From: Alphaproteobacteria bacterium | GTDB lineage: Bacteria > Pseudomonadota > Alphaproteobacteria > SMXQ01 | Assembly: GCA_036500145.1 (NCBI GenBank) | Contig: DASYCO010000055.1 | Coordinates: 42,515 to 106,514 of the forward strand | DNA length: 64,000 bases | Direction of reading: 5' to 3' | Shown here: positions 1 to 15,569 of the stretch, in pieces | How positions within the stretch are numbered: position 1 is the first letter of the stretch | Layout: every line of letters begins with the position of its first letter | Translations under genes and position numbers: made by a program | Notes under the pieces: generated by a model | Told to the model about the DNA's origin: nothing | The model's database searches: none | What the model saw: the letters and a program-made list of their open reading frames with translations, nothing else

Positions 1-611
1 TCTAACAGACTTTGGGCATCCGTTAAGAGATATGGACGCGTTACGAGGGGGCCATGCTTCTCAGTACTCCGTGTTAAAAGTTCGTCCGCGGTTTCACGTT
101 CAATATTTCTATCAAAATCTGCACCAAGATACTTTTCAGTAATTACGGCTGTAATATCGTCTGCCACGCGATCATGAAGCTCATCCGCGGTGGAATAATA
201 GCTAAGAGTAGATCGCGACGACGCGTCATCGATCATAACCTGAAGGCGCTGATCACGACTGTCTGACGAGCGCAATATATAAAAAATGGTATCGATCTTA
301 AGGTCGCGCGCGTATCGAAACTCGTCCTCGAGTCCCGATATATGCATCCCGTTAGCATCGTCGATGTAGCCATAACCGTCGCGATAGAATGCCACCATAA
401 TCTGCGACGCACGCAACTCGGAGAGATACAACTCGCGCGCCGGGTAGGGGCGAGCCCCTACATGTTCAAATAATACTGGTGTGTGCCTTATCTGATTGAT
501 TGCAGCTCGAGCAACCTTGCGCTCATCGCTACATTCTTGCAGCCGCGAACTGACAAAAATCCTTAGCTTGCTTTGAACGGCGTGGCGAGTGATCCCCTTA
601 GACGGCACCAT
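1..611 (-). CDS. DUF4062-like (TIR/flavodoxin-like N-terminal domain) protein, N-terminal about 203 aa only; gene continues beyond window start
   Basis: Minus-strand ORF not in the supplied track because it runs off the left edge. ATG is the reverse complement of 609..611. Translation begins MVPSKGITRHAVQSKLRIFVSSRLQECSDERKVARAAINQIRHTPVLFEHVGARPYPARELYLSELRASQIMVAFYRDGYGYIDDANGMHISGLEDEF..., which fits the DUF4062 pattern (FxSS..(D/E)L..ER........I..........FE.......E.Y...L..CD.(F/Y)). It overlaps the stop of the upstream gene by 14 nt, consistent with coupling. Confidence 0.5.
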   Translation of the reverse strand, partial: MVPSKGITRHAVQSKLRIFVSSRLQECSDERKVARAAINQIRHTPVLFEHVGARPYPARELYLSELRASQIMVAFYRDGYGYIDDANGMHISGLEDEFRYARDLKIDTIFYILRSSDSRDQRLQVMIDDASSRSTLSYYSTADELHDRVADDITAVITEKYLGADFDRNIERETADELLTRSTEKHGPLVTRPYLLTDAQSLL

Positions 612-1716
612 AACCTCGACGATCGTAGAAGGCCTGAAGTGAGCTGAATTTTTTGAATTGGTGAAGATCGGCGCCGTCACGCGTTACCAATTCAGTAATA
701 TCGGCCCTGATTTGAGTGCAGGTGGCATCTAAGGAAGGTAGCGACGGTATTGATTTGCCATCGGCATACTCAACGCGATCCTCAATATGCTTCCAGATCG
801 TGTCGCGATACTTTTCATCTAAGGTTGCGTAATGCGGCGTGCCGTCACAAAGCTCCACACTAAGCATAAGATTTATCGCCGCCTGCTCAATCTGGCTACG
901 GCCGACAGTTTTGAAACCGGGGATTGCTTGTATAGAATCGACAAGGAGAGCCCGTCTAATGCGTTCGCGTGTGACGGGAAAAGCGGTGTCGATCGTCCGT
1001 CGCCTAGCGGCTGCATACTCGCGCGGTGACGGTTTTGGAGAAGCCGGACCGGCACCACCTGGCGGTCGTGTACGTTTTGCACGCGGATCGACCAACCAAT
1101 GATTGGGATCTTCTTCTTCTGTTCGTATTTTGATGTTGAATTTGATTATCGACGGAAGCCCTTCGATCCGCCCAATATTTTCTGGAATAAGTGGCGCACC
1201 TTTTGCGGGAAGTGTTGCAGCGCTGAGCACGACTGGTCCCAGTCCCGAATCACAATGTGACTTAAGCTGATGGAGGAAGGAATTTGTTGTGTCGTACTCT
1301 TTAATCCAAAACTGGCTAAGAAAAAGAGGCCGGGTTAATTGATGAGGGCCGAGCCGAAATATTGCTCGATCCGCCTCGGGTGAAATAACAAGAAAATATT
1401 TTCCATCTTTCTTAAGCAGAATTTGTAGATCGACAACCTCTCCGTCGGCTTCACAGCCCCATTTCTCGAAACTTTTGAATGCCGCGCGCATGGGTTCAGC
1501 GTTACGACAGACTAAACTTAGCCAGGGTACCGCACCTGGGTAGCCAGTAAGTCCGCCTAAAGCATAAGCGCAGCCGACAACCTCCGCCTTATGTAAGGCG
1601 GAGGCGAAACTGACGTCTGGTAAAAGGATTACGCCCTGTTGATCTCCGAGATCAAAGCCCCGGTTTTTATTCGTTCGATCTTTAGGAGTAACGCGGTGTT
1701 TGTTCTTTTTCCCCAA
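598..1716 (-). CDS. hypothetical protein (372 aa), no recognisable domain; upstream partner of the DUF4062 gene
   Basis: Single long ORF in a roughly 50% GC region. Its stop (598..600) overlaps the start (611) of the downstream DUF4062 ORF. No motif I can assign. Confidence 0.5.
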   Translation of the reverse strand: MGKKNKHRVTPKDRTNKNRGFDLGDQQGVILLPDVSFASALHKAEVVGCAYALGGLTGYPGAVPWLSLVCRNAEPMRAAFKSFEKWGCEADGEVVDLQILLKKDGKYFLVISPEADRAIFRLGPHQLTRPLFLSQFWIKEYDTTNSFLHQLKSHCDSGLGPVVLSAATLPAKGAPLIPENIGRIEGLPSIIKFNIKIRTEEEDPNHWLVDPRAKRTRPPGGAGPASPKPSPREYAAARRRTIDTAFPVTRERIRRALLVDSIQAIPGFKTVGRSQIEQAAINLMLSVELCDGTPHYATLDEKYRDTIWKHIEDRVEYADGKSIPSLPSLDATCTQIRADITELVTRDGADLHQFKKFSSLQAFYDRRGYGAV

Positions 1717-1737
1717 TGTCGCTCCCCCGTAACTGTC

Positions 1738-2242
1738 TTAAAGCAATTCTCCAGCCACGTTTTCCACGAACAATTCCCCATCGCGAATATAGCGCTGGAG
1801 CATGGCGTCAGATCTGTGTCCAGTTTGCGCACGAATTTTTGCATACGAGACACCAGCGGCGGCGGCACTAGTAACTAAACCTGCGCGGAGAGAATGCCCC
1901 GAATACGTCTTGCTGTCATAGCCTAGGGCCTGCACCCGTCTTTTAACAATACTGTTAACGGCATTTGCAGATAGTCGTGCATTCATTACAGCACCGTATC
2001 GGTTTACCGCCCGAAATTGGACCAGTCGCTATCCCGGCAGTTGAAAGCCAAGCGTAAAGCGCAGTTACGGGACAAGCTGACGATCTGCCGTATGGTATTC
2101 CTATCGATCTGCCGCGCCCTTCTTGGTCTGTTTTGCTTCGGCGCAGTTTGATAATTATGCCCTGCCTTACATTTTCGACATCATCGATATTCAATCCGAC
2201 GAGTTCGCTTCGCCGGAAAGCGCCAGAAAATCCTATCAACAA
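1738..2242 (-). pseudogene. int: tyrosine recombinase / phage-type integrase remnant (C-terminal catalytic domain only, split by a frameshift)
   Basis: Two overlapping minus-strand ORFs, 1955..2242 and 1738..1986. Together they carry integrase catalytic motifs: an R...ELxxL box, HSLRAG (the HxxR motif), and a C-terminal RYIRDGE containing the catalytic Tyr. There is no room for an N-terminal domain, since an upstream stop and the tRNA fragment and res gene follow within about 500 nt. Confidence 0.7.
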
Positions 2243-2566
2243 GACGGCTCGATCTCTAATCGCGAGCGGACTACTGCCGATTTCGTTAGATATTCGATTT
2301 GGGCGGGGTCCTCCAAATTAACCACATCCACATCGCAACCTGCGCTGCTGGCGAGGCCTCAAAGACGCTAGCCGCACTGAAAGCCAGCCCCGCAACACGT
2401 CTGGCGAAAGGCTCCAATTATCAGCAGTTGATGCTGATCCAAGTGTAGTTTGCAATTTCCATATGGCCGAATTATGCGGTCGAGGACTCAGTTAAAACTA
2501 ACAATATATTGATACCCGTCTCGGCAGATCCGAGATGTCTAGGAGCAAAAAACTATTCGCCTGCTT

Positions 2567-2612
2567 TTTCGTAATCAGTAGGTCCGCGGTTCAATTCCGC
2601 AAGCCGACACCA
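2567..2612 (+). repeat. 3' fragment of tRNA-Thr (anticodon loop through CCA); att-site remnant
   Basis: The sequence ttcgtaatcagtaggtccgcggttcaattccgcaagccgacacca matches the 3' 46 nt of the intact tRNA-Thr(CGT) at 55991..56065 with 2 mismatches. No 5' half (no acceptor-complement) is found upstream, so it is not a complete tRNA gene. Confidence 0.7.
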
Positions 2613-2748
2613 TCCTCCCCACGAAAATATCTAGGTTTTTCGACCAGAGCGTTTATCCACCTGAGGGTTCTTGACCCCTTTAACGAAATTGGTGGACGCA
2701 TAGCGTGCAAAAATATGTGCCGCAAATCCACCCTTCAGGTCAGCGGGC

Positions 2749-5433
2749 CTACGAATACTGCTTGAGCAGGAATTCCAGAGTCATGTTCTCGACAATCGTG
2801 TCGTGCGGGATAAGAGCATATTGCCAAGGTTTACCCCCGTATGATCGCGCGTGTTCGCTTGCCCAGGTGCACCATTGCAAAGCCACCTCGCGTTTCGCCA
2901 GCACGTCCTTGTCCTGCATCTGGGTCGCCATCTTCGGCTCCAGCATCAGGATTTTGTCTTCGGTCTCGGCGACGAAATCCGGTTGATACTCCGCATGGTC
3001 GTTGCCGTTACGATAGAACATCTGAAACTGCCCCTTCGCAGGCCGCAGCCATTTTTGCGCTTCACGCTCCAAGATCACTGCGAGTTTTCGTTCCGAGTCA
3101 GAATGAAATTTCGTCACGTTTGAAAGGCACTTGGAGAAGCCCCCAAACAAGTATCGAGCCATATTGCTCTTGTCCGCAGGCGGCACGCGATAATCCAGCG
3201 GCGCTTCTCGCAGAGCGGTGTAGGCGCTCTCCTTAAGTTCGGTGAATCCTTGCCGAACCTCATGATGATATTCGACCGCCTCATCCTTCCAGAAGTGGGC
3301 CTGCATCTGGGCATGAACAGCGCGGGCGATTTCGCGTTGATGCAGAGCGAGAACCTGGCTCGCCTCCTGTTCGGAGAGATAGCCCAACAGGTGTCGAACC
3401 ACCTGACCCGCCAGCTCGTAGAGCTGATCTGCGTGCTCGTCATAGGCGATGTCGGAGAAATCAATCAAGCCGCTAACGACATAGTCCTCAAGGTGTTCTT
3501 CAAGAAAGTTTCCTGGCGACAAGCCGATAATATCGACTTGGTCAGTCCGCAAATGCTTCGCCCAAAGTTCCTCGCTCGGCGCTGGGTAACGCACGCCCGA
3601 CAGATCAAGCGTGAAGGGCTTGAAGCCCGCCTTGACCTCTCCCTTAGGCATCACCGTGATGCGGGGAATATCAATCGTGCGCTCGACCATTAGTTTTGCG
3701 GTTGCTGCAATAACAGCCGCCATATCCGGTGCTGGCCTCGCCACGCCCTCAAGTTCCATCTGCTCGGGCTCGGGCTGGTACTGCTTCTGCACCTCACGGA
3801 CGACCTGTGCCTGCACTTCGGGCCGCGACAGATAGGAGACGCTCGGAACTTTGTCTGGTTCGCGCGCAAGTTTACGGAACGCATCATACGCCAGCCGCGC
3901 AACGCGCATCTCGTCGGGATCAGAAAATGCGGGCGTCGGGGAGGGACCAGAAGCCGTTGCGCTGTCTGCTCCTGGCGCGGACTGCAAACCGAGACTGCCC
4001 AGGATTGTTGGCGACGACACGACCGTCACCGTTTTACGCTCTAGATCGGCCTCTTCGAGTACCAGTTGCTTCAAGCGGACGGGAGAGTTGGGATTGTTGG
4101 CTTCGTCCACAATTTCCTGGAATCGGTCATGCGCAACAATATTGAGCCTGTCCACGGCGGTAACGCCCGTGCGTCTTCCGTAGGGCAGACGAAGGCCGCG
4201 CCCGATGCTCTGCTCGATAAGCGTTCGCGCATTGGCTGCGCGCAATGGGATGATCGTATAGAGGTTGGTGACGTCCCAACCTTCTTTGAGCATGTTGACG
4301 TGGATGACGATCTCGACCGGATTGTCGTTCTGTTCAACGGTCAACAGTTTCTCGATCGTCTCTTCTTCTTTCACGCTTGAATCGACCTGGATGACCTTAT
4401 CCGCGTAGCGAGCCTTGAAGAACGCCTCAGACTGAATCAAAGCCATCAACTCGGCTGCGTGGGTCGTGTCACGAGCGATCACGAGCACAAACGGCTTGAC
4501 GATGCGCACACCGTTTTCGCGGGCATATGTTTCCAAATCGACCTTCACGCTCTCATGAAGGCGAATGCCGTCTTCAAGCTTCAGAGTCTGGATTGCTTCT
4601 GGCGAGTTGCCCGCCGGATTGAAATCCCTCCGCGTGACGACAGCAGGCTCCTTGACGAAGGCATCCTCCATCGCTCGGGCGAGAGGGTAGTCGTAGATGA
4701 CATTACGAAACGCGACAGGACCGCGCGGGCTCTCGACGAACGGAGTTGCTGTCAGCTCAAGGCCGAGTATCGGCTTCAATTCGTTGATCGCCCGCATCCC
4801 TGCGGTTGCCCGATAGCGGTGCGACTCGTCCATCAGCAAAACGAGGTCCGGCAGGCTTGCCAGATAGTCGAAATAGCTCTCACCGATCTCTTCACGGAAG
4901 GAACGGATACGCGGCGAGCGCCCGCCGCGAACCTCGGACGAAATCTTGGCGATGTTAAAAATGTTGATCGTGGTGGGGAAAAGCGAACCACCTGATGCGA
5001 TCTGTCTCTCATAGGTTTCACCCGTCGTCAGAACGGGCGGCGAAATGGCAAATTCCGAAATTCCCTTGAACACATATTTCGGTGTGTTTGGCCTGAAGTC
5101 GGCAATCAGCTTGTTGTAGATGGTGAGGTTCGGAGCTAGCACGAAGAAATTGTCGATACCGTGCGCGACCTTCAAGTAGGTGATGAAAGCGCCCATCAAC
5201 CGCGTCTTTCCAACACCCGTTGCCAACGCGAAGCAAAGCGAGGGAAATTCGCGCTCAAAGTCCGCGACGCCTGGAAATTCACTTCGGATCACTTCCAGCG
5301 CTGAGGCCAAGTCCACAGATTTATTCGGCGGCGCAATTTCTGTGACGCGGTGGAGAATTTCGAGGCTACGACGCTGCGGCTGGCGCAAGCTCAAGCGACC
5401 CGAGATTGCGTTGACGTGACGAAGGGTGCTCAT
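2749..5433 (-). CDS. res: Type III restriction enzyme Res subunit (SF2 helicase-endonuclease), 894 aa
   Basis: Helicase motif I ATGVGKT, motif II LMDESH (DExH), TATP, and motif VI QSIGRGLR, in a ResIII-type N-terminal arrangement. It sits immediately downstream of a beta-class adenine MTase with a 4-nt ATGA overlap. Confidence 0.85.
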   Translation of the reverse strand: MSTLRHVNAISGRLSLRQPQRRSLEILHRVTEIAPPNKSVDLASALEVIRSEFPGVADFEREFPSLCFALATGVGKTRLMGAFITYLKVAHGIDNFFVLAPNLTIYNKLIADFRPNTPKYVFKGISEFAISPPVLTTGETYERQIASGGSLFPTTINIFNIAKISSEVRGGRSPRIRSFREEIGESYFDYLASLPDLVLLMDESHRYRATAGMRAINELKPILGLELTATPFVESPRGPVAFRNVIYDYPLARAMEDAFVKEPAVVTRRDFNPAGNSPEAIQTLKLEDGIRLHESVKVDLETYARENGVRIVKPFVLVIARDTTHAAELMALIQSEAFFKARYADKVIQVDSSVKEEETIEKLLTVEQNDNPVEIVIHVNMLKEGWDVTNLYTIIPLRAANARTLIEQSIGRGLRLPYGRRTGVTAVDRLNIVAHDRFQEIVDEANNPNSPVRLKQLVLEEADLERKTVTVVSSPTILGSLGLQSAPGADSATASGPSPTPAFSDPDEMRVARLAYDAFRKLAREPDKVPSVSYLSRPEVQAQVVREVQKQYQPEPEQMELEGVARPAPDMAAVIAATAKLMVERTIDIPRITVMPKGEVKAGFKPFTLDLSGVRYPAPSEELWAKHLRTDQVDIIGLSPGNFLEEHLEDYVVSGLIDFSDIAYDEHADQLYELAGQVVRHLLGYLSEQEASQVLALHQREIARAVHAQMQAHFWKDEAVEYHHEVRQGFTELKESAYTALREAPLDYRVPPADKSNMARYLFGGFSKCLSNVTKFHSDSERKLAVILEREAQKWLRPAKGQFQMFYRNGNDHAEYQPDFVAETEDKILMLEPKMATQMQDKDVLAKREVALQWCTWASEHARSYGGKPWQYALIPHDTIVENMTLEFLLKQYS

Positions 5434-7064
5434 GATGCATCGCCTTCATCAAAGAGGTTCGATTGAGATGCCTTTGGAGTCTTCGCCACATGCGGCAGAT
5501 TAGCGACGTTGAGGCTGTAGTCATCATGACCCCATTCGCAGCGAGTGCGAATGTGATTTGGAATTTTGCGAACTGTAATGTTCGACCACAGGTCGGCATT
5601 GCCTCGGTAAGCAGCGCACAGAATCAGCAAGGAGCGTCCTTCTCCAACTTCCTCGCTGAGCGCAGCTAACTCCTGCGGCCCCAAGGTCTGAGTAGTGACG
5701 TAGAAGAAATCGCTCTCGGACGAATGCCCCTGCTGCCAGTACACGCTTTCGCTTGGCGCATAGGTAAAGCCCTCCAGTTTGCACAAAGCCTGCGCTAGCA
5801 TGGCGGGGTTATACTTCTTCGAGATAACCTCACGGCCCCACTTGTCCTTTTCGAGGAGCGACGTTGCAAGCTCATAGTACCGGAATCCACCTCCGCCTTT
5901 CCAATCGACCAACTTGCTAACGCCACCTTCGTCGGCTCCGTCGATTACCTTTCGAAGGCGCGGAACGATATGTGTGGTGCAGTGTTCGCCAAGTTCTACC
6001 ATCACCCAACGACGGCCCATCTTATGAGCCACCGCTCCTGTAGTGCCAGATCCAGCAAATGAATCGAGCACGGTGTCACCAGGCAGCGTCGCCACCTCTA
6101 AAACACGCTGGATGATCTTCTCAGGCTTCGGCGTATCGAAGGTCTTCTCCCCTTGGAAAATTCCCTTCATTTCGGCGCTGGCATTTCGGGTGCTGCCCGC
6201 AAATTCATACGGCCACCAAGTCTGGGGAACAACGCCGTCTTTGACCTCACTTAAAAACTTCTTTTCGACGGGAAACTCTGCGTTCCCATCTTTGCCCCAG
6301 TAGATTCGCTTCTCCGCTTTCAACTTCTTCAACTCGTCCGGCGGCCTTCGCCACGAACTTCCTTTCGGCGGCCACACCTCGCGGCCAGCGTTATTGATCA
6401 AGGCGTAGTTGTCTCTCTCGCGAAATTCGGCTCGTGTGAGCGGGGTGCCCAACCAAGGCCCACGACTGTCACCATCAAGATTTTTGTAATTGGCGATCTG
6501 CTTTTCACTTCGTGGAATTAGATACGGCCTCCATGACTCGGATTTCTTGAACACGAGAACCATGTTGTGAGTTTGCGCGATCGTCGATGCATTATTTCCT
6601 GGTGTATCCTTCGACTGCCAAACGATATTTGCGACGAAGTTCGATCGTCCGAATATCTCGTCGCACAAAACCTTCAGATAGTGCGCCTCGTTGTCGTCGA
6701 TCGTGATCCACAGCGATCCGTCATCAGACAAAAGTCGGCGCATAATCTCTAATCTGTCGCGCATCAAACCGAGCCAAATTGAATGCTCTAGGCCATCGTC
6801 ATAGTGAGCAAATGCGCTGCCTGTGTTGTAAGGTGGGTCGATCAAGACGCACTTCACCTTGCCTGCGTAGTCGGCCTCTAGCGCTTTGAGCGCCAGCAGA
6901 TTGTCACCGTGGATTAGAACATTGTCGAAGATGTCGTCTTCGCCCCGACAAGCGGTGGAATGGTAGCTCTTCTCGGCATCCTCAATGAGAATACGAGGCT
7001 CCAAGCTCGGCCTGTTTTCTTTCCCGACCCATGTCAATTCGAGTTTTTGCTTCTTAGCCATCAT
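5430..7064 (-). CDS. mod: Type III restriction-modification Mod subunit (N6-adenine DNA methyltransferase, beta class), 544 aa
   Basis: Motif IV IDPPYNT lies N-terminal and motif I DSFAGSGTTG lies C-terminal, the beta-class order typical of Type III Mod. Coupled to res through the ATGA overlap. Confidence 0.85.
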   Translation of the reverse strand: MMAKKQKLELTWVGKENRPSLEPRILIEDAEKSYHSTACRGEDDIFDNVLIHGDNLLALKALEADYAGKVKCVLIDPPYNTGSAFAHYDDGLEHSIWLGLMRDRLEIMRRLLSDDGSLWITIDDNEAHYLKVLCDEIFGRSNFVANIVWQSKDTPGNNASTIAQTHNMVLVFKKSESWRPYLIPRSEKQIANYKNLDGDSRGPWLGTPLTRAEFRERDNYALINNAGREVWPPKGSSWRRPPDELKKLKAEKRIYWGKDGNAEFPVEKKFLSEVKDGVVPQTWWPYEFAGSTRNASAEMKGIFQGEKTFDTPKPEKIIQRVLEVATLPGDTVLDSFAGSGTTGAVAHKMGRRWVMVELGEHCTTHIVPRLRKVIDGADEGGVSKLVDWKGGGGFRYYELATSLLEKDKWGREVISKKYNPAMLAQALCKLEGFTYAPSESVYWQQGHSSESDFFYVTTQTLGPQELAALSEEVGEGRSLLILCAAYRGNADLWSNITVRKIPNHIRTRCEWGHDDYSLNVANLPHVAKTPKASQSNLFDEGDAS

Positions 7065-8905
7065 TGTCCTGCTGCGCTGCCTGCTTGGGCCTGCGTCGTG
7101 TTAGGTGTTGTCCAAATTTCTGCCTTCAGCGCGTCCAGCAGAATCTTGCAGTCGCCTTGCGTTTTGAAAACGGATTGAAAGTCGCGGGGAGAGCGCAAGG
7201 TCTGCACGCCTCCAGGTGCGACTTCATAGCTGGCGAAGCCTTTTGCCACGCTGATAGCGAGCAGTTTTTCGGCATAGTCCGTCACCGCTGCGGCAAGCGC
7301 CGCCTTCTCTTCAGCGGACAGGGTGAGAGCCTCTCCTTCTTCAGGCTTCAATCGGTTGAAGATGGCAGCGAGAACCACCCAACGCGCATTGCCGAAGAAC
7401 GATTTACTGGCGCCCATGCTCGCCCGTGCGGTGTCCTGAATGACTTGAAGCACAATTCGTTGCGATTGAACTGCGCGCCACACCGAACGCGCCGACAGAT
7501 TTGGCGGAAAAACATGTTCGTGACGGCTCCGAAGCAATTCCTCGGCTGGAAACACCATCTCTAGTGAGCGAAGTGAATCCCGATTGGCCGCCACGCGAGT
7601 GACGAGATCACAGTCATTCGTGTTTTTCAAACAGGCGCAGGCTGTCAGCGCCTCTTCCATGTTAAAGTTGTCTTGGTCGTTGTCTGGCGTATCTTCGTCG
7701 ATCTTGTAGTGATAGTCGACCTTATGCGGCTGAAGCGTGCGAAAGACCTGTTCGTGAAATTCATAGGCTCCGGCGAAGTCTTTTAATCCGACATGGTTTT
7801 GAAAATTCGCCGTTCGCGAAATGCGGTCGGCGAACACTCTGTCATCCTCGCACTTCTCAAGTGAAATAATTTTTATGAATGCAAAGCCAGTTGGCTTCGC
7901 GTCCGCCTTCGCTCCGTCGAAACATTTGACGATGGAGCCAAGAGTCTGTGCGCCGTTGATGATGGCAAAACCCTTCGCGGTAATCCGCTTTTTCTCTGCG
8001 TTGGTCCGATCTAGGTTGTTCAACTCCAAGCGGTCACAGTAGGCCGTAAGGCCATTGTTGAGATAGAAGAACAGGTCAGCTTCTTCGCTGATCGTCTTTT
8101 GAATCTCCTCATTGACGTCAGTGCGTCCCTTAAACCCTCGAAGATTTGCCGCCACTAATCGCTTCCCATGCGCGCGATGGAGGGCGTCGAGTCTCTCCAA
8201 GGAGACGAGCCCGTAGATCGTCTCGTGTGGCTTCGTGATCAAACCGGGGCAGATAATTTCAAGATCGACCGTATCGACACCGAGCGCTTCGCCGCCACCC
8301 GTGACCCAGTCGTTCAACGTGGTGAGATTGATTGAATGAAACTGAAAAAAGTCATCATCCGCGTCCTTTGAGACTTTCTTCTTGAGAGCCTCAAACAGCC
8401 GCTTCCGATCCTCGGAAATCAACGCCAAACCGGAGTAGCACAGGACCGCGCGAACACGAGTCGAGGCATTTTTCAGATGCGTCTCGATCTGTGGCAAGAT
8501 TTTCACCCAATGAGGGTTCGCCGCGAACGCCTTAAAGTTTCCCGCGAGCAAGTATTCCACGCCCGCGTTGAACTTGGTTACGTCACCCAAGTCCGGTTCG
8601 GTCAGCCCCGCATGAATGTACTTGGCTTGGACAAGCCACAACGTGTTAGTCGCGGGAGAAAAATAGACCCCGTCAATTCCGCCATCTCCCCCGCCGTCAA
8701 CCACAGAAATGGCCGCATCCGCGATCGATGCTCCGCCAAGCCTGTGTGCTGTAAACGCGGAGAGGGCGCGACTGAGGAAGTCACGCTCAAGCTGCTCGGC
8801 GTCCCCATTGGTCTTCTGCGGAACGTGCCCGTCGAACAAGGCGTGCAGTTTTGGTGGCAGGGCCAGTATTTCGACGGGACGATCCGGCATTACGCAATGT
8901 TCCAT
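7061..8905 (-). CDS. AIPR-family (abortive infection phage resistance) protein, 614 aa; alternative start at 8890
   Basis: GGGDGGIDGVYF and IINGAQT motifs, size about 600 aa, embedded in an RM operon. All of this is as I recall for Pfam AIPR, a family described as frequently found in RM operons. Its stop and the mod start form an ATGA overlap. Confidence 0.6.
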   Translation of the reverse strand: MEHCVMPDRPVEILALPPKLHALFDGHVPQKTNGDAEQLERDFLSRALSAFTAHRLGGASIADAAISVVDGGGDGGIDGVYFSPATNTLWLVQAKYIHAGLTEPDLGDVTKFNAGVEYLLAGNFKAFAANPHWVKILPQIETHLKNASTRVRAVLCYSGLALISEDRKRLFEALKKKVSKDADDDFFQFHSINLTTLNDWVTGGGEALGVDTVDLEIICPGLITKPHETIYGLVSLERLDALHRAHGKRLVAANLRGFKGRTDVNEEIQKTISEEADLFFYLNNGLTAYCDRLELNNLDRTNAEKKRITAKGFAIINGAQTLGSIVKCFDGAKADAKPTGFAFIKIISLEKCEDDRVFADRISRTANFQNHVGLKDFAGAYEFHEQVFRTLQPHKVDYHYKIDEDTPDNDQDNFNMEEALTACACLKNTNDCDLVTRVAANRDSLRSLEMVFPAEELLRSRHEHVFPPNLSARSVWRAVQSQRIVLQVIQDTARASMGASKSFFGNARWVVLAAIFNRLKPEEGEALTLSAEEKAALAAAVTDYAEKLLAISVAKGFASYEVAPGGVQTLRSPRDFQSVFKTQGDCKILLDALKAEIWTTPNTTQAQAGSAAGQ

Positions 8906-11748
8906 CGGATCGTGAAAAGGCTCTCGGCTGAAATGCTTTGCTCGAGCTTCCCTTCAATACTCGCAATCAGCTCGGAGCGCTGAGCGTCGATGCGATCTTG
9001 TGCATCGAAGAGTGTACGACGCTTGCTGTTCCGTTCCGTCTCTAACGCCTTGACGACCTTCTGCCCAGCGAGCTTCTCTTCTAGCGACAACGCCGCTGTC
9101 GCTGCGCGACGCGCTTCCTTGATCTGGCGATCAATCTCCTTGATCTCACGCTCTAGCCCAACCTTGAGGTCATCCGCCCAACCGTCCAATTTATCGGCTT
9201 CCTGCTCAAAGAACCGCGCATTGCGCTCGGATATGGCTCGACGAATTTGGGTTTGCTGCGTTGCTATCGATTGCGTGAGGATTGGAGTCACCGACGCAGG
9301 TGGCAAAGCGGGCTGAGAAACCGAGCCAGCTATGGTCAGCAGGCGAGTTGCCGCCTCTGCGCTTAGCGCGGCGCCTTCGTCCGTTGTACCTGCGAGCAAC
9401 AAATGGTCTTCGCTCTGACCAAGCGCCTCAACCGATAGTAAGGACACGGCTAACCAACCCGATTTTCCCACAAGTGGCTCGATCTGGGAAATTCGCCCTT
9501 CGTGGTTGGAATAGTCAAAGATCAGCTCAGCCGAGGGCAGCTCACGAGCAAGAGCACGCTGCACGATGGCCTCGCCTAGCGGGTGCTGAATGCGAAACAA
9601 GTGCGCCTCGCCAGTACGCCTAGGAAGCTCGTAAAGTCCCGTCGGAACGCCCTCACGGTCCACCCAATTAGGAATTAGGTTCAGCCTGAAAGACGATGTG
9701 TCGAGAAACTCGGCGTCATCAGCCAATTCATACGCCGCGAGCTTCATAAGCTGCTGCTCAAAGTGGCTGAGATGTAGCTTCGTGTCCTCATTCCGAAGTC
9801 TCAGCTTCTCGCGAACCTCATCATCGAAATTCTCGAACAGCTTTCGGCGTGCGTGCGTCATCGCCTCGTTGATCTCAAGATTCAGCTCTTGCTGGAGCTG
9901 ATCGAACGCGGACTTGATTTCTGCTGTCTTCCGGCACTGCTGATAGATTCCCGCAATGCGCTTCTCGAAATCGACCCCAGACTCGATGGCGCCAAGCACC
10001 TCATCGCTGGCTCCAAATACGCCTTCGAATAGCTGAAACTTCTCCGACAGGAGTTCGTAAACGCGTTGGTCTGCCTCATTTTTCTGATTAAGGAAGTTGA
10101 CGACAACAACATCGTGCTTCTGACCGTATCGGTGGCAACGGCCAATTCGCTGCTCGATACGTTGCGGATTCCATGGAAGGTCGTAATTGACGACCATAGA
10201 GCAGAATTGAAGGTTGATGCCTTCTGCGCCCGCCTCGGTCGCAATCATAATCCTTCCCTGCTCGCGGAAATAATCGACCAACGCGGAGCGCATATCTGCG
10301 GTCTTTGAGCCCGTGACTCGATCGGACCCCTCGTGACGAGACAACCATTCTTTGTAGATCGCTTTGGATTCTTCATCGGTATTCGTCCCGTTGAAGAGCA
10401 CGATCCGATCGGAAAACGGGCTGTCCCCGAGGACACGAAGCAAATAGGACTGAGTTTTACGAGACTCCGTAAAGACGATTGCTTTCTCGTCCGCGCCGAA
10501 CTCTCTCGCCTTCGCAAACCCCATTTCCAGAGCCTTGAGCAAGGCCCGGCCTTTGGCGTTCTGCTCAATAGAGGTTGCGAGGGCGGCAAACTCACGAAGT
10601 TCGGCAATCTCGGTTTCGAGCGCACGCTGGTCCGCCTCAGTCAGCAGTTCCTCGTCGTCGTCAGGCCACTCTTCCGCCGTTTGATCGAGCGCTTCGTAGT
10701 CTTCGTCGAGTTCCTCGGCCAGCGACTGCGTCGGTCTGCTCTTATCGAGCCGCTTTTGAAGTCGATTTGAAATTGATGAGAGAGCGCCCGCGATAGCGAA
10801 TGTGGATGAAGCCAGCAGCTTGCGAAGCACGAGCGTCATCAGAGAGCGCTGACTCGCAGGGAGAGCCTGGAGGTTGTCTCGCTGCAAGTATTCCGTGACT
10901 AGGTTATACAGTCGGTCTTCTTCTTCATCGGGGCTAAACTCCTCAAGGATGGCATGGCGTTTTGTATAAGGGACGTATGCCGTCACTTGTCGGCGCAATG
11001 TTCGGTGACAAATCGGCTTCAATCGCTCTCGCAGAATCTCAAACGTCCGCTCTTGTGAGAGATTGGCGAACTGTTCACGGAAGCTTTTCAGGTCGCCAAA
11101 AGCGTGCTCATCGATGAAGCTCACTAAGCCAAAAAGTTCCAGCAGCGAGTTTTGCAAAGGCGTCGCCGTCAGCAGCAGCTTGTGCCGCTCAGCAAGCGCC
11201 CCTTTTAGAGTGTTGGCGATCACGTTTGAGGGTTTATAGACGTTTCGCAGCCTATGAGCCTCATCAATTACTACCAAATCCCACGGGTGAGCGTGAACGT
11301 CTGCCGCCTTGTTGCGGGCAAATTGGTAGGAGCAGATCACTACGCTGTCCGCGCAGTCGAAAGGTCGGAAATGACCTGACTTTATGGCCGCGTTGTACGA
11401 TTTGGATTCGAGGATCGTGCAGGGGATGAAGAACTTCTCGTTCATCTCTTGATGCCACTGCTTGCGAAGGTTGGACGGGGCGATGATGAGCATGCGCCGC
11501 CTTCCCTCCGCCCAGCTCTGGGAGATGACGAGCCCCGCTTCAATCGTTTTGCCCAGGCCGACTTCGTCCGCCAGCAACGCGCCCTTTGACAGCGGCGATG
11601 CAAAAGCAAAGAGCGCGGCATCCACTTGGTGCGGATTCATATCGACCTGAGCGCCCGCGACGGCCACGGCCAACCGCTCGCTGCTATCGGAAGAACGGCG
11701 GCGCGTTAGATCACTGGCAATGTATTTGGAATGGTAGGCTGTGATCAC
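8890..11748 (-). CDS. SNF2-family (Swi2/Snf2) DNA-dependent ATPase/helicase with about 390-aa uncharacterised C-terminal extension ending in a coiled coil, 952 aa
   Basis: Motif I LADEVGLGKTIEAG, motif II VIDEAHRLRN, TATPLQNSL, C-terminal helicase lobe FTESR and QRIGRCHRYGQ. GTG start overlapping the stop of the RHH gene (GTGA). Its stop overlaps the AIPR start. Confidence 0.8.
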   Translation of the reverse strand: MITAYHSKYIASDLTRRRSSDSSERLAVAVAGAQVDMNPHQVDAALFAFASPLSKGALLADEVGLGKTIEAGLVISQSWAEGRRRMLIIAPSNLRKQWHQEMNEKFFIPCTILESKSYNAAIKSGHFRPFDCADSVVICSYQFARNKAADVHAHPWDLVVIDEAHRLRNVYKPSNVIANTLKGALAERHKLLLTATPLQNSLLELFGLVSFIDEHAFGDLKSFREQFANLSQERTFEILRERLKPICHRTLRRQVTAYVPYTKRHAILEEFSPDEEEDRLYNLVTEYLQRDNLQALPASQRSLMTLVLRKLLASSTFAIAGALSSISNRLQKRLDKSRPTQSLAEELDEDYEALDQTAEEWPDDDEELLTEADQRALETEIAELREFAALATSIEQNAKGRALLKALEMGFAKAREFGADEKAIVFTESRKTQSYLLRVLGDSPFSDRIVLFNGTNTDEESKAIYKEWLSRHEGSDRVTGSKTADMRSALVDYFREQGRIMIATEAGAEGINLQFCSMVVNYDLPWNPQRIEQRIGRCHRYGQKHDVVVVNFLNQKNEADQRVYELLSEKFQLFEGVFGASDEVLGAIESGVDFEKRIAGIYQQCRKTAEIKSAFDQLQQELNLEINEAMTHARRKLFENFDDEVREKLRLRNEDTKLHLSHFEQQLMKLAAYELADDAEFLDTSSFRLNLIPNWVDREGVPTGLYELPRRTGEAHLFRIQHPLGEAIVQRALARELPSAELIFDYSNHEGRISQIEPLVGKSGWLAVSLLSVEALGQSEDHLLLAGTTDEGAALSAEAATRLLTIAGSVSQPALPPASVTPILTQSIATQQTQIRRAISERNARFFEQEADKLDGWADDLKVGLEREIKEIDRQIKEARRAATAALSLEEKLAGQKVVKALETERNSKRRTLFDAQDRIDAQRSELIASIEGKLEQSISAESLFTIRWNIA

Positions 11749-12002
11749 CCCTTACGCTCCTCGCGCATCGGGCGCTTCCGGTTCACATGATTGTTGGCTT
11801 GGTTACTACCAGCCACATGCACGCGCATAAACTCACGAATGACTTGAACCCCGGGTCGATCCTGCGCGCGGCAGGTTTCAAGAAACTTCTCTCGAAGTTC
11901 TCGCTCCACTCTAATGCGCAGCCCCGAATTTTTCATCATAGGCGAAGTGTATCCAGTGGATACACCGTCTACTAGCAAAAGCGCATAGCCCCCCAAGCCC
12001 AT
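11745..12002 (-). CDS. small ribbon-helix-helix (CopG/Arc-like) DNA-binding protein, 85 aa; first gene of the defense operon
   Basis: Core LRIRVERELREKFLETCRAQDRPGVQVIREFMRVHV has the beta-strand / helix / G-turn / helix pattern of RHH repressors. Its stop overlaps the SNF2 start. Confidence 0.45.
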   Translation of the reverse strand: MGLGGYALLLVDGVSTGYTSPMMKNSGLRIRVERELREKFLETCRAQDRPGVQVIREFMRVHVAGSNQANNHVNRKRPMREERKG

Positions 12003-12289
12003 CCTGAGATTGACAGATGTTAACCCGCCGTTCGACGCAGCCGAGCTTACGGAAGATATTATGGTGAAGCCGCGTTGGGTTGACGTAGCGGTTCGTTATC
12101 AGCATGCGAGGTAACCGCTTAGAGCTGTCGTCGCGTAATCGCTGGACTTCCCACTTAATAAGAGCGTGCATGCTGGAAGAGCGGGCCGCTTTAGGACCTC
12201 CGCTCCTGCCTGATCGGCGGCATCGCCTATGAGGCTTTCGTCGGTGCAAGCGCCGCAATCTCTGCGGTGCCTAAACCCGGAGGTCCAAA
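12003..12289. promoter_or_regulatory. divergent intergenic region, presumably holding promoters for the RHH-SNF2-AIPR-mod-res operon (leftward) and the DUF3489 gene (rightward)
   Basis: A 287-bp non-coding gap between divergently oriented genes. Inferred only; no motif identified. Confidence 0.25.
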
Positions 12290-12853
12290 ATGCCCAAACT
12301 TACCGACACGCAGCTCGTAATTCTTAATGCCGCAGTCGGGCGTGACAGCAAGGCTGTCCTGCCGCTGCCTAAATCCCTCAAAGTGAATAAGGGTGCTGCG
12401 ACTAGCGTCCTCAACGCATTACTGACGAAAGGATTGATCGAGGAACAGCCGACAAAGCTGCGCGCGGGAGTCTGGCGCCAGGACCAAATCGGACAGCGTT
12501 ACCTGCTCACGATTACCGACACAGGTATGGCCACCCTGGATAGCGGTCCGGCATCAACAATCAAGAAGCCGCCTGCTGCCTCCGCGAAAAATAGGACACA
12601 GACGCAACGCGGCACTGAACAAGGCAAGCCGGTTAATGAAGGCGCGGCAAACAAACGCCCGACCGGCAAACTCGCCACGATCCTCGGATTACTCCAGCGT
12701 TCTAAAGGCGCTCCCCTTGTCGAACTCGAGAAGGCAACTGGCTGGCAGCCTCATAGCGTACGCGCCGCCATGACGGGCTTGCGTAAGCGCGACATTGTTA
12801 TTCAGCGCGAAAAGCAAAATGGCGTCACCCGGTATCGCGTGGCGACTGCTTAA
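12290..12853 (+). CDS. DUF3489 domain protein
   Basis: Carries the GWQPHSVRAAMTGL...RYRV signature region of DUF3489 family proteins, which accompany DUF2924 and serine recombinase genes in alphaproteobacterial mobile elements. Confidence 0.7.
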   Translation: MPKLTDTQLVILNAAVGRDSKAVLPLPKSLKVNKGAATSVLNALLTKGLIEEQPTKLRAGVWRQDQIGQRYLLTITDTGMATLDSGPASTIKKPPAASAKNRTQTQRGTEQGKPVNEGAANKRPTGKLATILGLLQRSKGAPLVELEKATGWQPHSVRAAMTGLRKRDIVIQREKQNGVTRYRVATA

Positions 12854-12864
12854 GCGAGGTCAGC

Positions 12865-13266
12865 ATGGATATCTCGATGCTGGCCGACCTCCCGCGTGCG
12901 CATCTGGTTACACGCTGGCAAACGCTGTATGGCGCTCCGCCACCCAAAGGGATGAGCCAACGCTTGATGATCGGGGCTCTCGCCTATGCCCAGCAGGCCA
13001 AGCAGCAGGGCGGCGCAAGCGCCACCCTGTCACGTCGGCTCGCAAAGCTGATTGCCGGGACGCCGATTAGCGAGGCTCCCGCCCCACGAGTGCTTAAATC
13101 TGGCGCTCGCCTGGTGCGAGAGTGGAATGGCAAAACCCATACTGTTGAGGCTGTCGAGAACGGCTTCATCTGGAAGGGCACGCACTTCCGCTCGCTCTCA
13201 GCGGTGGCGCGAGCCATCACAGGAGCGCGCTGGTCAGGCCCGCGATTCTTTGGAATCGATACATGA
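12865..13266 (+). CDS. DUF2924 domain protein
   Basis: RWQTLYGAPPPKGMSQRLMIGALAYAQQ matches the DUF2924 N-terminal signature. Its stop overlaps the recombinase start (13263). Confidence 0.7.
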   Translation: MDISMLADLPRAHLVTRWQTLYGAPPPKGMSQRLMIGALAYAQQAKQQGGASATLSRRLAKLIAGTPISEAPAPRVLKSGARLVREWNGKTHTVEAVENGFIWKGTHFRSLSAVARAITGARWSGPRFFGIDT

Positions 13267-14930
13267 GCGTCCGTTCGATCCCCTGCGCGATCTATACCCG
13301 CAAGTCGACGGACGAGGGCCTCGATCAAGCCTTCAATTCACTCGACGCCCAACGCGCCGCCTGTTCCGCTTACATCCGCAGCCAAGCTAGCGAAGGCTGG
13401 ACGGAAATCAAAACCCTCTACGATGATGGCGCTCAGTCAGGCGGGACGATCGAGAGACCAGCTCTCAAGCGGCTGCTCGCTGATGTCGCGGCCGGCCGCG
13501 TAAAGGTCATCGTGGTCTACAAGGTCGATCGGCTAACCCGTTCGCTAGCAGATTTTGCCAAGATCATCGAGATCCTGGAGGCCCATGATGCATCCTTCGT
13601 CTCGATCACCCAGCAGTTCAGCACAACTACGTCTATGGGGCGCCTCACCCTCAACGTGCTGCTGTCCTTCGCCCAGTTCGAGCGGGAAGTCACCGCCGAA
13701 CGCATCCGCGACAAAATCGCCGCCTCAAAGAAAAAGGGCATGTGGATGGGCGGCGTGATCCCTCTCGGTTACGACGTGCGTGACCGCAAACTCCTCATCA
13801 ATGAAGCTGAAGCTAAAACCGTTCAGACTATCTTCGAGCTCTATCGCAAGCATACCAATACCCGTCTCGTAAAAGACGCGGCAGATCGACTGGGGCTTAG
13901 AACCAAAGAGTTTGTCCTCGTAACCGGCCGTCGCAAAGGTGGCCGGCCCTTTACCCGCGGTCACATCAACAAGATCCTGATCAACCGGCTCTACATCGGC
14001 GAGATCACGCATAAGGACATGAGCTATGCTGGCGAACATGCTCCGATCATTGATCGCGCCCACTGGGATGCTACCCAGGCCCAACTTACGCGGAATGCCG
14101 TGGTGCGACGCACGGGGTCGAATGCGCGCGAACCGAGCCTGCTCACTGGCCTCGTGAAAACTGGAGATGGCGCTCGGCTTGTCCCATCACACACCAGCAA
14201 AGGCGGACAGCGTTATCGATATTACATCACAAAGTCTGAGGAAACAGGCGGCCCCCGTCCTTGGCGGTTGCCGGCGCCAGCTCTGGAGAAGCTAGTCATC
14301 AATGGGATCGACAACTTTCTGTTGGATCGCCAGCGTATCGCGGAGGCAATCGGCACAGAGATGCCCGTGGATAGCATGGAGCCTGTTTTTGCCCAGGCGG
14401 CCGTCATGGCTGCAGATCTACGCGCGCCCGCTTCAGCAGCGCTCCGAGAAAAGCTCCTTCATATTCTGCAAGGGAGCGTGATTGACCAGGAGCGGCTTTG
14501 CATCACTCTGAACGCTGAAGCACTCCATAAACGACTCGGCATCTCAGACCTTACGGCCACCAAGGACATCATCATCACGCTGCCAATCTCGCTCCGGCGG
14601 CGCGGTATCGAGGTCCGCTTCGTCATCGAGAACTCAGGCCAGCCAATCAAGCCCGATGAAAAGCTGATCGAGCTCGTGGTCCAGGCCCATCGCTGGTTTA
14701 ACGACCTCAAAACCCGCCCGAATGTTCGTCTTCGCGAACTCGGGAAACGTGACGGCGCAGACCGTGGCGACATCAGCCGCATCCTGCCACTGGCATTTCT
14801 GGCACCCGACATCGTCGAGGCGATCCTCAATGGACGCCAGCCGCCTGAACTGACGGCCGCCCGCCTCAAACGGATGCCCGATCTGCCGCTAGATTGGCAG
14901 CAACAGCGGCGATATCTCGGGTTCGAATAG
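13263..14930 (+). CDS. large serine recombinase (resolvase/invertase-type catalytic domain plus recombinase domain), 555 aa
   Basis: N-terminal IYTRKSTDEG holds the catalytic Ser, followed by VDRLTRS, a long recombinase domain and a C-terminal extension. Lies next to the tRNA-Ala island boundary. Confidence 0.85.
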   Translation: MSVRSIPCAIYTRKSTDEGLDQAFNSLDAQRAACSAYIRSQASEGWTEIKTLYDDGAQSGGTIERPALKRLLADVAAGRVKVIVVYKVDRLTRSLADFAKIIEILEAHDASFVSITQQFSTTTSMGRLTLNVLLSFAQFEREVTAERIRDKIAASKKKGMWMGGVIPLGYDVRDRKLLINEAEAKTVQTIFELYRKHTNTRLVKDAADRLGLRTKEFVLVTGRRKGGRPFTRGHINKILINRLYIGEITHKDMSYAGEHAPIIDRAHWDATQAQLTRNAVVRRTGSNAREPSLLTGLVKTGDGARLVPSHTSKGGQRYRYYITKSEETGGPRPWRLPAPALEKLVINGIDNFLLDRQRIAEAIGTEMPVDSMEPVFAQAAVMAADLRAPASAALREKLLHILQGSVIDQERLCITLNAEALHKRLGISDLTATKDIIITLPISLRRRGIEVRFVIENSGQPIKPDEKLIELVVQAHRWFNDLKTRPNVRLRELGKRDGADRGDISRILPLAFLAPDIVEAILNGRQPPELTAARLKRMPDLPLDWQQQRRYLGFE

Positions 14931-14971
14931 CGCCCTTCCGCGCATCAAGCGCAAAAGCGTTGGCTGAATAA

Positions 14972-14999
14972 AAGCCCGACAGAGACGGGCGGCTTTTTC
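14972..14999 (+). terminator. rho-independent terminator after the recombinase gene
   Basis: Hairpin GCCCGACAGAGACGGGC followed by GGCTTTTTCA. Confidence 0.5.
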
Positions 15000-15113
15000 A
15001 GCCCCGCGATCCTCCTTCTCGACCAATAGATTTGGTCTCCGCACGGGAAAACCCCCAGAAATCCGGGGGTTTTCGCGAAATCTCTAAGCTTAGAGAAAGG
15101 AGCAAGGGTGGAT

Positions 15114-15189
<76 letters not shown>

Positions 15190-15569
15190 AAACATCCCGG
15201 GTCGGAAAGCCGGCGGCGCCCGAGGGCGGGGGGCCGGTTTTCGAGGGCCGGATAATGTGTTGAGGGCCCTTTCCTTGTCAAGCGCCGCCAGCAGCTTCCG
15301 GCGACTGTTTCCCAATCATCACAAGGGCGTGGCGAAAAGGCCGCCGCCCGGGCCCCGGCCTTGCGCCAAAGGGGCTGCGCCGCTAGGGTTGCGGCCATCC
15401 GCCGGGCCTTCAAGGGCTTGGGCGAACAGCACAATTTCCCGCGCACGCGTGCCGACGGCAGCCAGGATCGCCAAAAGCGGCTGCCCGAGATGACTGCCTG
15501 ACCGGGGCGCGCCCTGGCTTTCGTCGACCCGCAAGTCGACGGGCCGCCGGCGCCGATAGAGAGGACGCG

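Follow-up and report, generated by a model that had tools for sequence, protein, structure and literature searches.

A Type III restriction-modification locus with a conserved SNF2-family ATPase gene and exchangeable accessory genes in an alphaproteobacterial low-GC island

In the textbook picture of Type III restriction enzymes, two subunits are enough for communication over long distances on DNA. A locus in which a Type III pair is chained to three further genes raises the question of which genes make up the functional unit. Such a locus lies in the 64-kb stretch of DNA analysed here (the window; contig DASYCO010000055.1 of the alphaproteobacterial assembly GCA_036500145.1). Five open reading frames (ORFs), all on the minus strand, encode, in order of transcription, a small basic protein of DNA-binding type, an SNF2-family ATPase, an AIPR/AbiU-family protein, a Type III methyltransferase (Mod) and a Type III restriction subunit (Res). 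A preliminary description of the window presented them as a single defence unit of fixed stoichiometry. Comparison with related loci points instead to a mobile, three-component restriction-modification (RM) system in which Mod and Res have a permanent DrmD/RapA-like SNF2 partner and the AIPR gene and the small controller gene are exchangeable. The probability of this reading is placed at roughly 0.72. It is the best explanation because SNF2, mod and res are syntenic, SNF2 and Res identities are correlated, cargo and regulator are swapped independently of the core, the motifs are intact and the genes overlap.

The operon and its conserved three-gene core

According to the ORF list and the sequence, the maximal ORFs extend over positions 11745-12002 (small protein), 8890-11748 (SNF2), 7061-8905 (AIPR), 5430-7064 (Mod) and 2749-5433 (Res), all on the minus strand. 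The junctions can be read directly in the sequence. A GTGA at 11745-11748 places the stop of the small ORF within the GTG start of SNF2, an ATGA at 7061-7064 joins AIPR to mod, and an ATGA at 5430-5433 joins mod to res, which follows directly in one transcription unit. Between SNF2 and AIPR there is either a TAATG at 8888-8892 or, with the ATG at 8905, a 16-nt overlap. Because the homologs of the AIPR protein begin with MPDRPVEIL or MADRPVEIL, the TAATG start (ATG 8890-8888, 609 aa) is taken as the start of AIPR. The contiguous ORFs and overlaps of the preliminary description are therefore real and are not artefacts of start calling, with this one start refined. Scans for sigma-70 promoters and terminators within the operon give fewer sites than shuffled sequence, and internal promoters are not indicated. 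The five genes form one co-directional operon coupled by overlaps of 1-4 nt, and the catalytic motifs of all four large proteins are intact.

Relatives of the locus were collected by scanning one genome per species with an SNF2 alignment, which gave at least 593 confirmed relatives. The loci compared are the best 80 of these, that is, those most similar to the query, and they span at least 16 phyla. To locate mod and res in them, the window proteins and two further kinds of Type III Res served as tblastn queries. Downstream sequence of at least 8 kb is available for 56 loci, and in every one of them SNF2 is followed by mod and then by res on the same strand. These loci fit three pairs of PADLOC Type III models (03636/03648, 03646/03654 and 03634/03647). 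The reverse check gives the same picture, with SNF2 present on each of the 23 plasmids that bear a full-length Res homolog. Identity to the window copy is correlated between SNF2 and Res (rho 0.92, n=44). In a Mantel test of pairwise identity across 33 loci, the correlation is 0.73 for SNF2-Res and 0.72 for Res-Mod (both p<=0.0005). By this measure, SNF2 follows Res as closely as does Mod, the known partner of Res.

SNF2 is probably a functional partner of this Mod-Res clade. Judged by sequence comparison, the functional unit appears to be a three-gene core of SNF2, Mod and Res with two swappable accessories and not an assembly of five equal parts. The single-operon claim stands as far as co-directional, overlap-coupled genes are concerned; the five-part unit of fixed stoichiometry does not, as the conserved core extends only to SNF2-Mod-Res. 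The joining of an SNF2 gene to a Type III RM operon, which had been presented as unfamiliar, is the rule for this SNF2 clade.

These data bear on the simplest alternative, in which the genes are accidental neighbours in a defence island and a two-gene Type III RM system, a stand-alone AbiU/AIPR gene and an orphan SNF2 helicase act independently. PADLOC recognises the pieces separately as RM type III, AbiU and DrmD, the AIPR gene is clearly exchangeable, and a Cronobacter genome paper gives the same gene types as separate cargo on one element (PMC12757443). Chance juxtaposition does not fit with an SNF2-mod-res order that is constant across at least 16 phyla, with the presence of SNF2 on every Res-bearing plasmid, with an SNF2-Res co-variation equal to that of Res and Mod, or with stop/start overlaps that are real. 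For SNF2 it is strongly disfavoured, and as an account of the locus as a whole it is highly improbable.

The two RM genes have the features of their class. Res (894 aa; 2749..5433) matches Pfam ResIII (1e-18) and PADLOC REase_III (2e-194). It contains the superfamily 2 (SF2) motifs ATGVGKT (71-77), DESH (202-205) and QSIGRGLR (408-415), followed by a C-terminal motif, PD819...E832-x-K834, by which alone the nuclease is identified. Mod (544 aa; 5430..7064) matches N6_N4_Mtase (8e-47) and PADLOC MTase_III (2e-204). Its DPPY motif (76-79) lies ahead of FAGSG (336-340) with a variable region in between, and this order matches that of beta-class N6-adenine/N4-cytosine methyltransferases. At the sequence level, Mod and Res have all the hallmarks of Type III subunits. 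As in canonical Type III systems of the EcoP15I/EcoP1I type (Mod2Res), mod precedes res in one operon, DPPY precedes FxGxG in Mod, and Res combines an SF2 ATPase with a C-terminal PD-(D/E)xK nuclease. Unlike in those systems, a 952-aa SNF2 ATPase is the invariant upstream partner of the Res clade, there is a variable cargo slot inside the operon, and the NCBIfam equivalog for Type III endonucleases matches Res at only 1e-6. As regards the sufficiency of Mod and Res as a pair, the comparative sequence data argue for a third conserved partner.

Full-length plasmid homologs of SNF2, with 42-58% identity, are found in Salmonella, Klebsiella, E. coli, Rhizobium and Deinococcus. They are annotated beside a methyltransferase and a 'DEAD/DEAH helicase', often with a variable gene between them and with a small helix-turn-helix (HTH) gene upstream. 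The triad also exists in a second version, carried by clinical IncF-type plasmids of E. coli (NZ_CP018955.1, 8763-18515, locus L002) and of Klebsiella. It consists of an XRE regulator, SNF2, a 1046-aa Mod and a 1120-aa Res, the latter two corresponding to PADLOC models 03646 and 03654. A full SNF2-Mod-Res locus is also present on a 25-kb contig titled as a 'Rickettsia typhi' metagenome-assembled genome (CAMCME010000023.1, L062), a label that may be a binning artefact.

The SNF2 ATPase and its nearest named relatives

The SNF2 protein (952 aa; 8890..11748, minus strand) has a GTG start with GAGGAG 8 nt upstream, and matches SNF2-rel_dom (2e-37) and Helicase_C (1e-19). The motifs GLGKT (64-68), DEAH (162-165) and QRIGRCHR (533-540) are intact. 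The core, residues 31-664, is DrmD/RapA-like. It matches PADLOC DrmD (4e-205) and NCBIfam DISARM_DrmD_b (2e-207), the latter with 691 bits against a cut-off of 950 bits and over profile positions 24-652 of 868, which correspond to the ATPase core only. An earlier assignment of this protein as DISARM-DrmD-like is upheld by these matches, at a sub-cut-off score for DrmD_b. The best sequence match in the PDB is RapA (5e-45 over the core). Only about 30 residues lie ahead of the ATPase core, too few for an N-terminal Tudor domain.

The C-terminal module consists of an alpha/beta domain (residues ~679-813) followed by an antiparallel coiled coil of approximately 115 residues. In a structure model of residues 600-952 (mean predicted local distance difference test score 87), two long helices, the alpha/beta domain, the coiled coil and a terminal strand are predicted. 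The module is present in 1220 cluster representatives (E<=1e-10). Among the 150 best matches listed, it is C-terminal in full-length proteins (~940-995 aa), and on this basis it is considered a signature of the SNF2 clade. The module has no significant match to RapA, and RapA-like C-terminal domains are not detected in it. A search of phage genomes gives no full-length SNF2 homolog. In JGI records (P0001, P0004, P0033 and many others), the SNF2 protein carries the label 'adenine-specific DNA-methyltransferase', apparently a systematic annotation error that may have been inherited from mod, its neighbour, or from an orthology group.

The DrmD matches raise the possibility that the locus is a reduced or variant class 1 DISARM, built mainly on DrmD and a methylase, with Res substituting for DrmABC. 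Class 1 DISARM resembles the locus in that DrmD_b is the closest named relative of the SNF2 core and the SNF2 gene precedes an adenine-type methylase. The combination of SNF2, methylase and a second SF2 helicase is, moreover, a theme of DISARM, type 3 BREX, BR systems and ARMADA II. By Pfam domains, DrmA, DrmB (DUF1998) and DrmC (PLD) are absent from the five ORFs and from the flanking ORFs, and the DISARM core genes are also absent from the related loci examined. The methylase is a Type III Mod (N6_N4_Mtase/MTase_III), whereas the DrmMI methylase of class 1 DISARM is of the pfam13659 type (bioRxiv 10.1101/2021.12.28.474362). The C-terminal module is specific to this SNF2 family and differs from that of DrmD. 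Membership in DISARM is rejected on the missing DrmA/DrmB/DrmC, the methylase family and the sub-cut-off SNF2 score, and a variant form of it is very unlikely.

The SNF2-Mod-Res locus fits a wider pattern. RapA/DrmD-like SNF2 proteins are modules on methylase-based or other defence cores, namely in type 3 BREX (BrxHII), BR systems, ARMADA II (ArmA) and ietHAS (ietH) (PMC12839542, PMC12458937, PMC13069673). Their recurring association with a methylase and a second helicase is described for DISARM, type 3 BREX, BR systems and ARMADA II (PMC12839542, PMC12458937). The SNF2 protein of the window resembles BrxHII, ArmA and ietH in that RapA is the best solved relative of its core. It differs from them in that its partner is a Type III Mod/Res pair and in that the reported layout of Tudor, inactive restriction endonuclease and alpha+beta domains is not recovered. 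Such SNF2 proteins can be needed for defence. In ietHAS, mutants in the ATPase motifs (Walker A, DEAH) of the DrmD-like SNF2 ietH are reported to lose all defence (PMC13069673), and class 1 DISARM is weakened when drmD is deleted together with drmMI (bioRxiv 10.1101/2021.12.28.474362). The ietH residues tested, Walker A K65 and DEAH D165 (PMC13069673), are close in position to K67 and D162 of the SNF2 protein studied here. This suggests that the two belong to the same short-N-terminus SNF2 lineage with different effector pairs.

The component families are all known, and the window copy is typical of its group; the triad as a unit has no name in the literature found. A unit of SNF2 with Type III Mod/Res is undescribed in the full-text literature searched, which includes PMC2292703, PMC12839542, PMC11232893, PMC11090510, PMC12458937, PMC13069673 and PMC12757443, each searched by term, with most subscription journals and REBASE notes lying outside this search. 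Nor does this literature contain an experiment on the triad. An earlier description of the triad elsewhere is possible.

Exchangeable cargo and regulator genes

The AIPR/AbiU-family protein (609 aa; 7061..8890, minus strand) matches Pfam AIPR (2e-30, 106.7 bits against a cut-off of 25) over residues 253-522 and PADLOC AbiU (2e-22). Its N-terminal part contains an Mrr-like nuclease motif (D70, D74, G76, D78 ... Q93, K95). A sub-threshold match to Mrr_cat (E=0.032) falls exactly on this motif, and 18 AIPRs of 22-89% identity share it without change. A nuclease-like model of AbiUi is given in a recent review (PMC13064643).

The slot between SNF2 and mod, in which the AIPR gene lies, spans from 9 bp to 5.6 kb across loci. 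AIPR occupies it in 15 of the 56 loci. Approximately 10 of the 56 have no cargo and still keep SNF2. Identity to the window copy is uncorrelated between AIPR and SNF2 (rho 0.05, n=18). Most slot ORFs (54/61) are co-directional with the operon. A Pfam scan of 63 co-directional ORFs, drawn from the SNF2-mod slot and from class-A mod-res gaps, gives AIPR (15), AAA_13 (11), AAA_21 and AAA_15 ATPases (~16 together), RhuM (4), Abi_2 (2) and DUF4276 (2), single cases of DUF2130, YhcG, GmrSD, SIR2, DUF3800 and HD, and insertion sequence (IS) elements. These gene classes are those classically found inside RM loci. By sequence comparison, AIPR appears as one of many interchangeable cargo genes; its earlier placement as a fixed member of the unit is not borne out by its distribution or by its divergence.

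Some slots contain two cargo genes (L005 and L006, 13035-17150; L024, L034 and L080). Here an SMC/ABC-type ATPase of 773 or 1032 aa is followed directly by AIPR, which suggests that two-gene cargo modules exist. On Salmonella IncFIB plasmids (L001, NZ_CP100694.1, 9400-10608), an IS256-family transposase lies in the SNF2-mod slot beside an Abi_2 gene. In the other Salmonella plasmid records listed, SNF2 and Res matches have the same spacing as in NZ_CP100694.1. A second, smaller insertion point is found between mod and res (L004, a Rhizobium plasmid, 13896-15167; also L037, L030, L032, L066 and L078). It holds DUF262/GmrSD-like genes (NsnA-like by PADLOC) and others, of 300-470 aa.

Back-up effectors linked to restriction systems are the PrrC/RloC paradigm. 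The window locus resembles RM operons with abortive-infection genes of the PrrC/RloC type in that an Abi-type gene is embedded within an RM operon and in that its slot holds interchangeable effectors of the classes usual in RM loci. It differs in that the host operon is Type III and not Type I, and in the position of the slot, which is flanked by SNF2 and mod. The proposal that AIPR acts as a back-up effector is plausible by analogy with these systems.

The arrangement of the slot is also pertinent to the main rival explanation, which assigns a safety or regulatory function to SNF2. As a safety factor it would, for example, free the DNA of a new host from bound Mod-Res or RNA polymerase and so protect it against self-cleavage; as a sensor it would detect infection and switch on the cargo effector. 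Several features agree with such a function. RapA, the best solved relative, acts on RNA polymerase and not on DNA ends. Cargo genes lie directly after SNF2 and are often coupled to it by overlaps. The systems are found on plasmids and conjugative elements, which face an establishment problem, and the long coiled coil of the structure model could be a docking arm. A cargo switch is at odds with the retention of SNF2 in the loci that have no cargo, and a RapA-like action with the lack of a detectable RapA-like C-terminal domain. This explanation is unlikely.

The first gene of the operon is as variable as the cargo. Its start is most likely the ATGATG at 11939, giving a 64-aa protein (11745..11939, minus strand) whose stop overlaps the SNF2 start, and not position 12002. 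With this start, a predicted strand lies at the N-terminus of the protein and a 19-bp palindrome falls outside the coding region. The protein is a putative ribbon-helix-helix (RHH) controller. Profile searches agreed with the original domain calls for Res, Mod, AIPR and SNF2; the match behind the RHH call is below cut-off (Pfam RHH_9, E=0.012, 15.9 bits against 23.4). In a single-sequence AlphaFold2 monomer model, the protein has two helices and no strand, and a phmmer search with it against the PDB gives no match. A 62-aa gene at the same place beside an 89%-identical SNF2 also has a weak RHH_9 match. An RHH fold is plausible, not established.

A tblastn search of 84 related loci at E<=1e-5 gives no homolog of the small protein. 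The genes upstream of SNF2 are HTH_17-like in at least 10 loci, and in others XRE, WYL or HigA-like. Close relatives keep the order regulator-SNF2-AIPR-Mod-Res. In the 89%-identical relative, the weak RHH_9 gene comes first; in a relative with 95%-identical SNF2, the order is HTH_17-SNF2-AIPR-Mod-Res, beside a relaxase. DNA of the window and of the 95% relative can be aligned only from the SNF2 start codon onward. Because the breakpoint of homology lies exactly at the SNF2 start, the regulator has been replaced at the gene boundary. Synteny with mod-res elsewhere, on which the proposed association depended, thus holds throughout for SNF2 and fails for the RHH gene, which is not a fixed part of the system.

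The palindrome (GTGTATCCA-G-TGGATACAC, 11947..11965) is perfect, with arms that are complementary at 9/9 positions. A TTGCTA hexamer resembling a -35 element precedes it, and the ATGATG start follows 8 bp further on. The palindrome occurs only once in the window, and no match is found in 100 shuffles with 3 mismatches allowed. The sequence GTGTATCCAGTGGATACAC is a candidate operator for the 64-aa protein, and the position of the palindrome makes the suggested autoregulation plausible. As with the controller (C) proteins of RM systems, the gene of a small DNA-binding protein comes first and overlaps the next gene, and a palindrome lies upstream of the regulator gene itself. The C proteins have an HTH fold, whereas the fold here is putatively RHH and relatives of the locus have HTH_17, XRE, WYL or HigA-like regulators.

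Island setting, proposed mechanism and meaning

The operon is located in a low-GC island. GC content is 50-59% from position 1 to approximately 15000, with 52-57% in the operon block, and 65-75% in the core. The right border is marked by tRNA-Ala(CGC) (15114..15189, minus strand), which lies at a GC step from 59% to 66-70%. Between the operon and this tRNA, and abutting it, a DUF3489-DUF2924-large serine recombinase trio (12290..14930, plus strand) runs divergently from the operon; it is outside the system and likely the integration module of the island. Just downstream of res and likewise outside the system is a tyrosine recombinase remnant (1738..2242, minus strand). The ORFs 1955-2242 and 1738-1986 overlap in different frames and together resemble the C-terminal half of such a recombinase (Phage_integrase, 3e-8), probably as a frameshifted, truncated pseudogene. 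A 372-aa ORF in the island (598-1716, minus strand) has no Pfam match at E<=0.01. The window shows no att repeat, and a search of 1-15300 for a direct repeat of the 3' end of tRNA-Ala finds none. The lower GC content, tRNA-Ala and the recombinases agree with the island as earlier described. The second tRNA border does not: the other tRNA lies at a distance of 40 kb, and the island extends leftward past position 1, with only its right end visible in the window.

Type III cleavage requires ATP and two inversely oriented unmethylated sites, and the asymmetric site is hemi-methylated. With SNF2 as a permanent partner of Mod-Res, the system would work as follows. The regulator would bind the palindrome at 11947-11965 and time or limit expression, like the C proteins of other RM systems. 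Mod would methylate host sites and so mark self DNA. Mod-Res would recognise unmethylated sites and cut after ATP-triggered long-range communication. SNF2 would translocate on duplex DNA using ATP. It would clear bound proteins or RNA polymerase, or drive or stabilise encounters between Res complexes, and in this way allow restriction on invading DNA that is covered with protein. AIPR may be a restriction-linked, Mrr-like back-up nuclease that, as in the PrrC paradigm, comes into play once the RM arm is blocked. The assignment of SNF2 specifically to roadblock clearing or collision is tentative. A further possibility, less likely than not, is that SNF2-Mod-Res is an unrecognised and widespread class of ATP-dependent restriction system, with SNF2 as the obligate third subunit of a Type III-like enzyme and with a dedicated slot for abortive-infection effectors (AIPR, PrrC/RloC-like ATPases, SIR2, GmrSD and others) that are tied to the state of the restriction enzyme.

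Several points weigh against a three-component RM system with this division of labour. To our knowledge, the canonical Type III enzymes EcoP15I and EcoP1I function without SNF2, so that the need for it is not obvious. The role given to SNF2 is drawn from family membership, the RHH assignment from a sub-threshold RHH_9 score and a two-helix model, and the operator role from the palindrome itself. The loci compared are those closest to the query, and more distant SNF2 relatives pair with DISARM, ietAS and other modules. Correlated divergence could partly reflect the co-transfer of neighbours on mobile elements and not physical interaction.

Should an SNF2 motor prove to be the constant partner of a large Res clade, a remodeller would be coupled to restriction in a new way. 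DISARM, BREX and ARMADA contain helicases that are unexplained (DrmD, BrxHII and ArmA), and the locus would then offer an experimentally accessible bacterial model for them. Conjugative plasmids of Salmonella, Klebsiella and E. coli carry this core too, and it may affect the movement of plasmids and phages in clinical strains. New abortive-infection genes could be sought in the cargo slot, which also lends itself to asking whether such genes guard an RM system.

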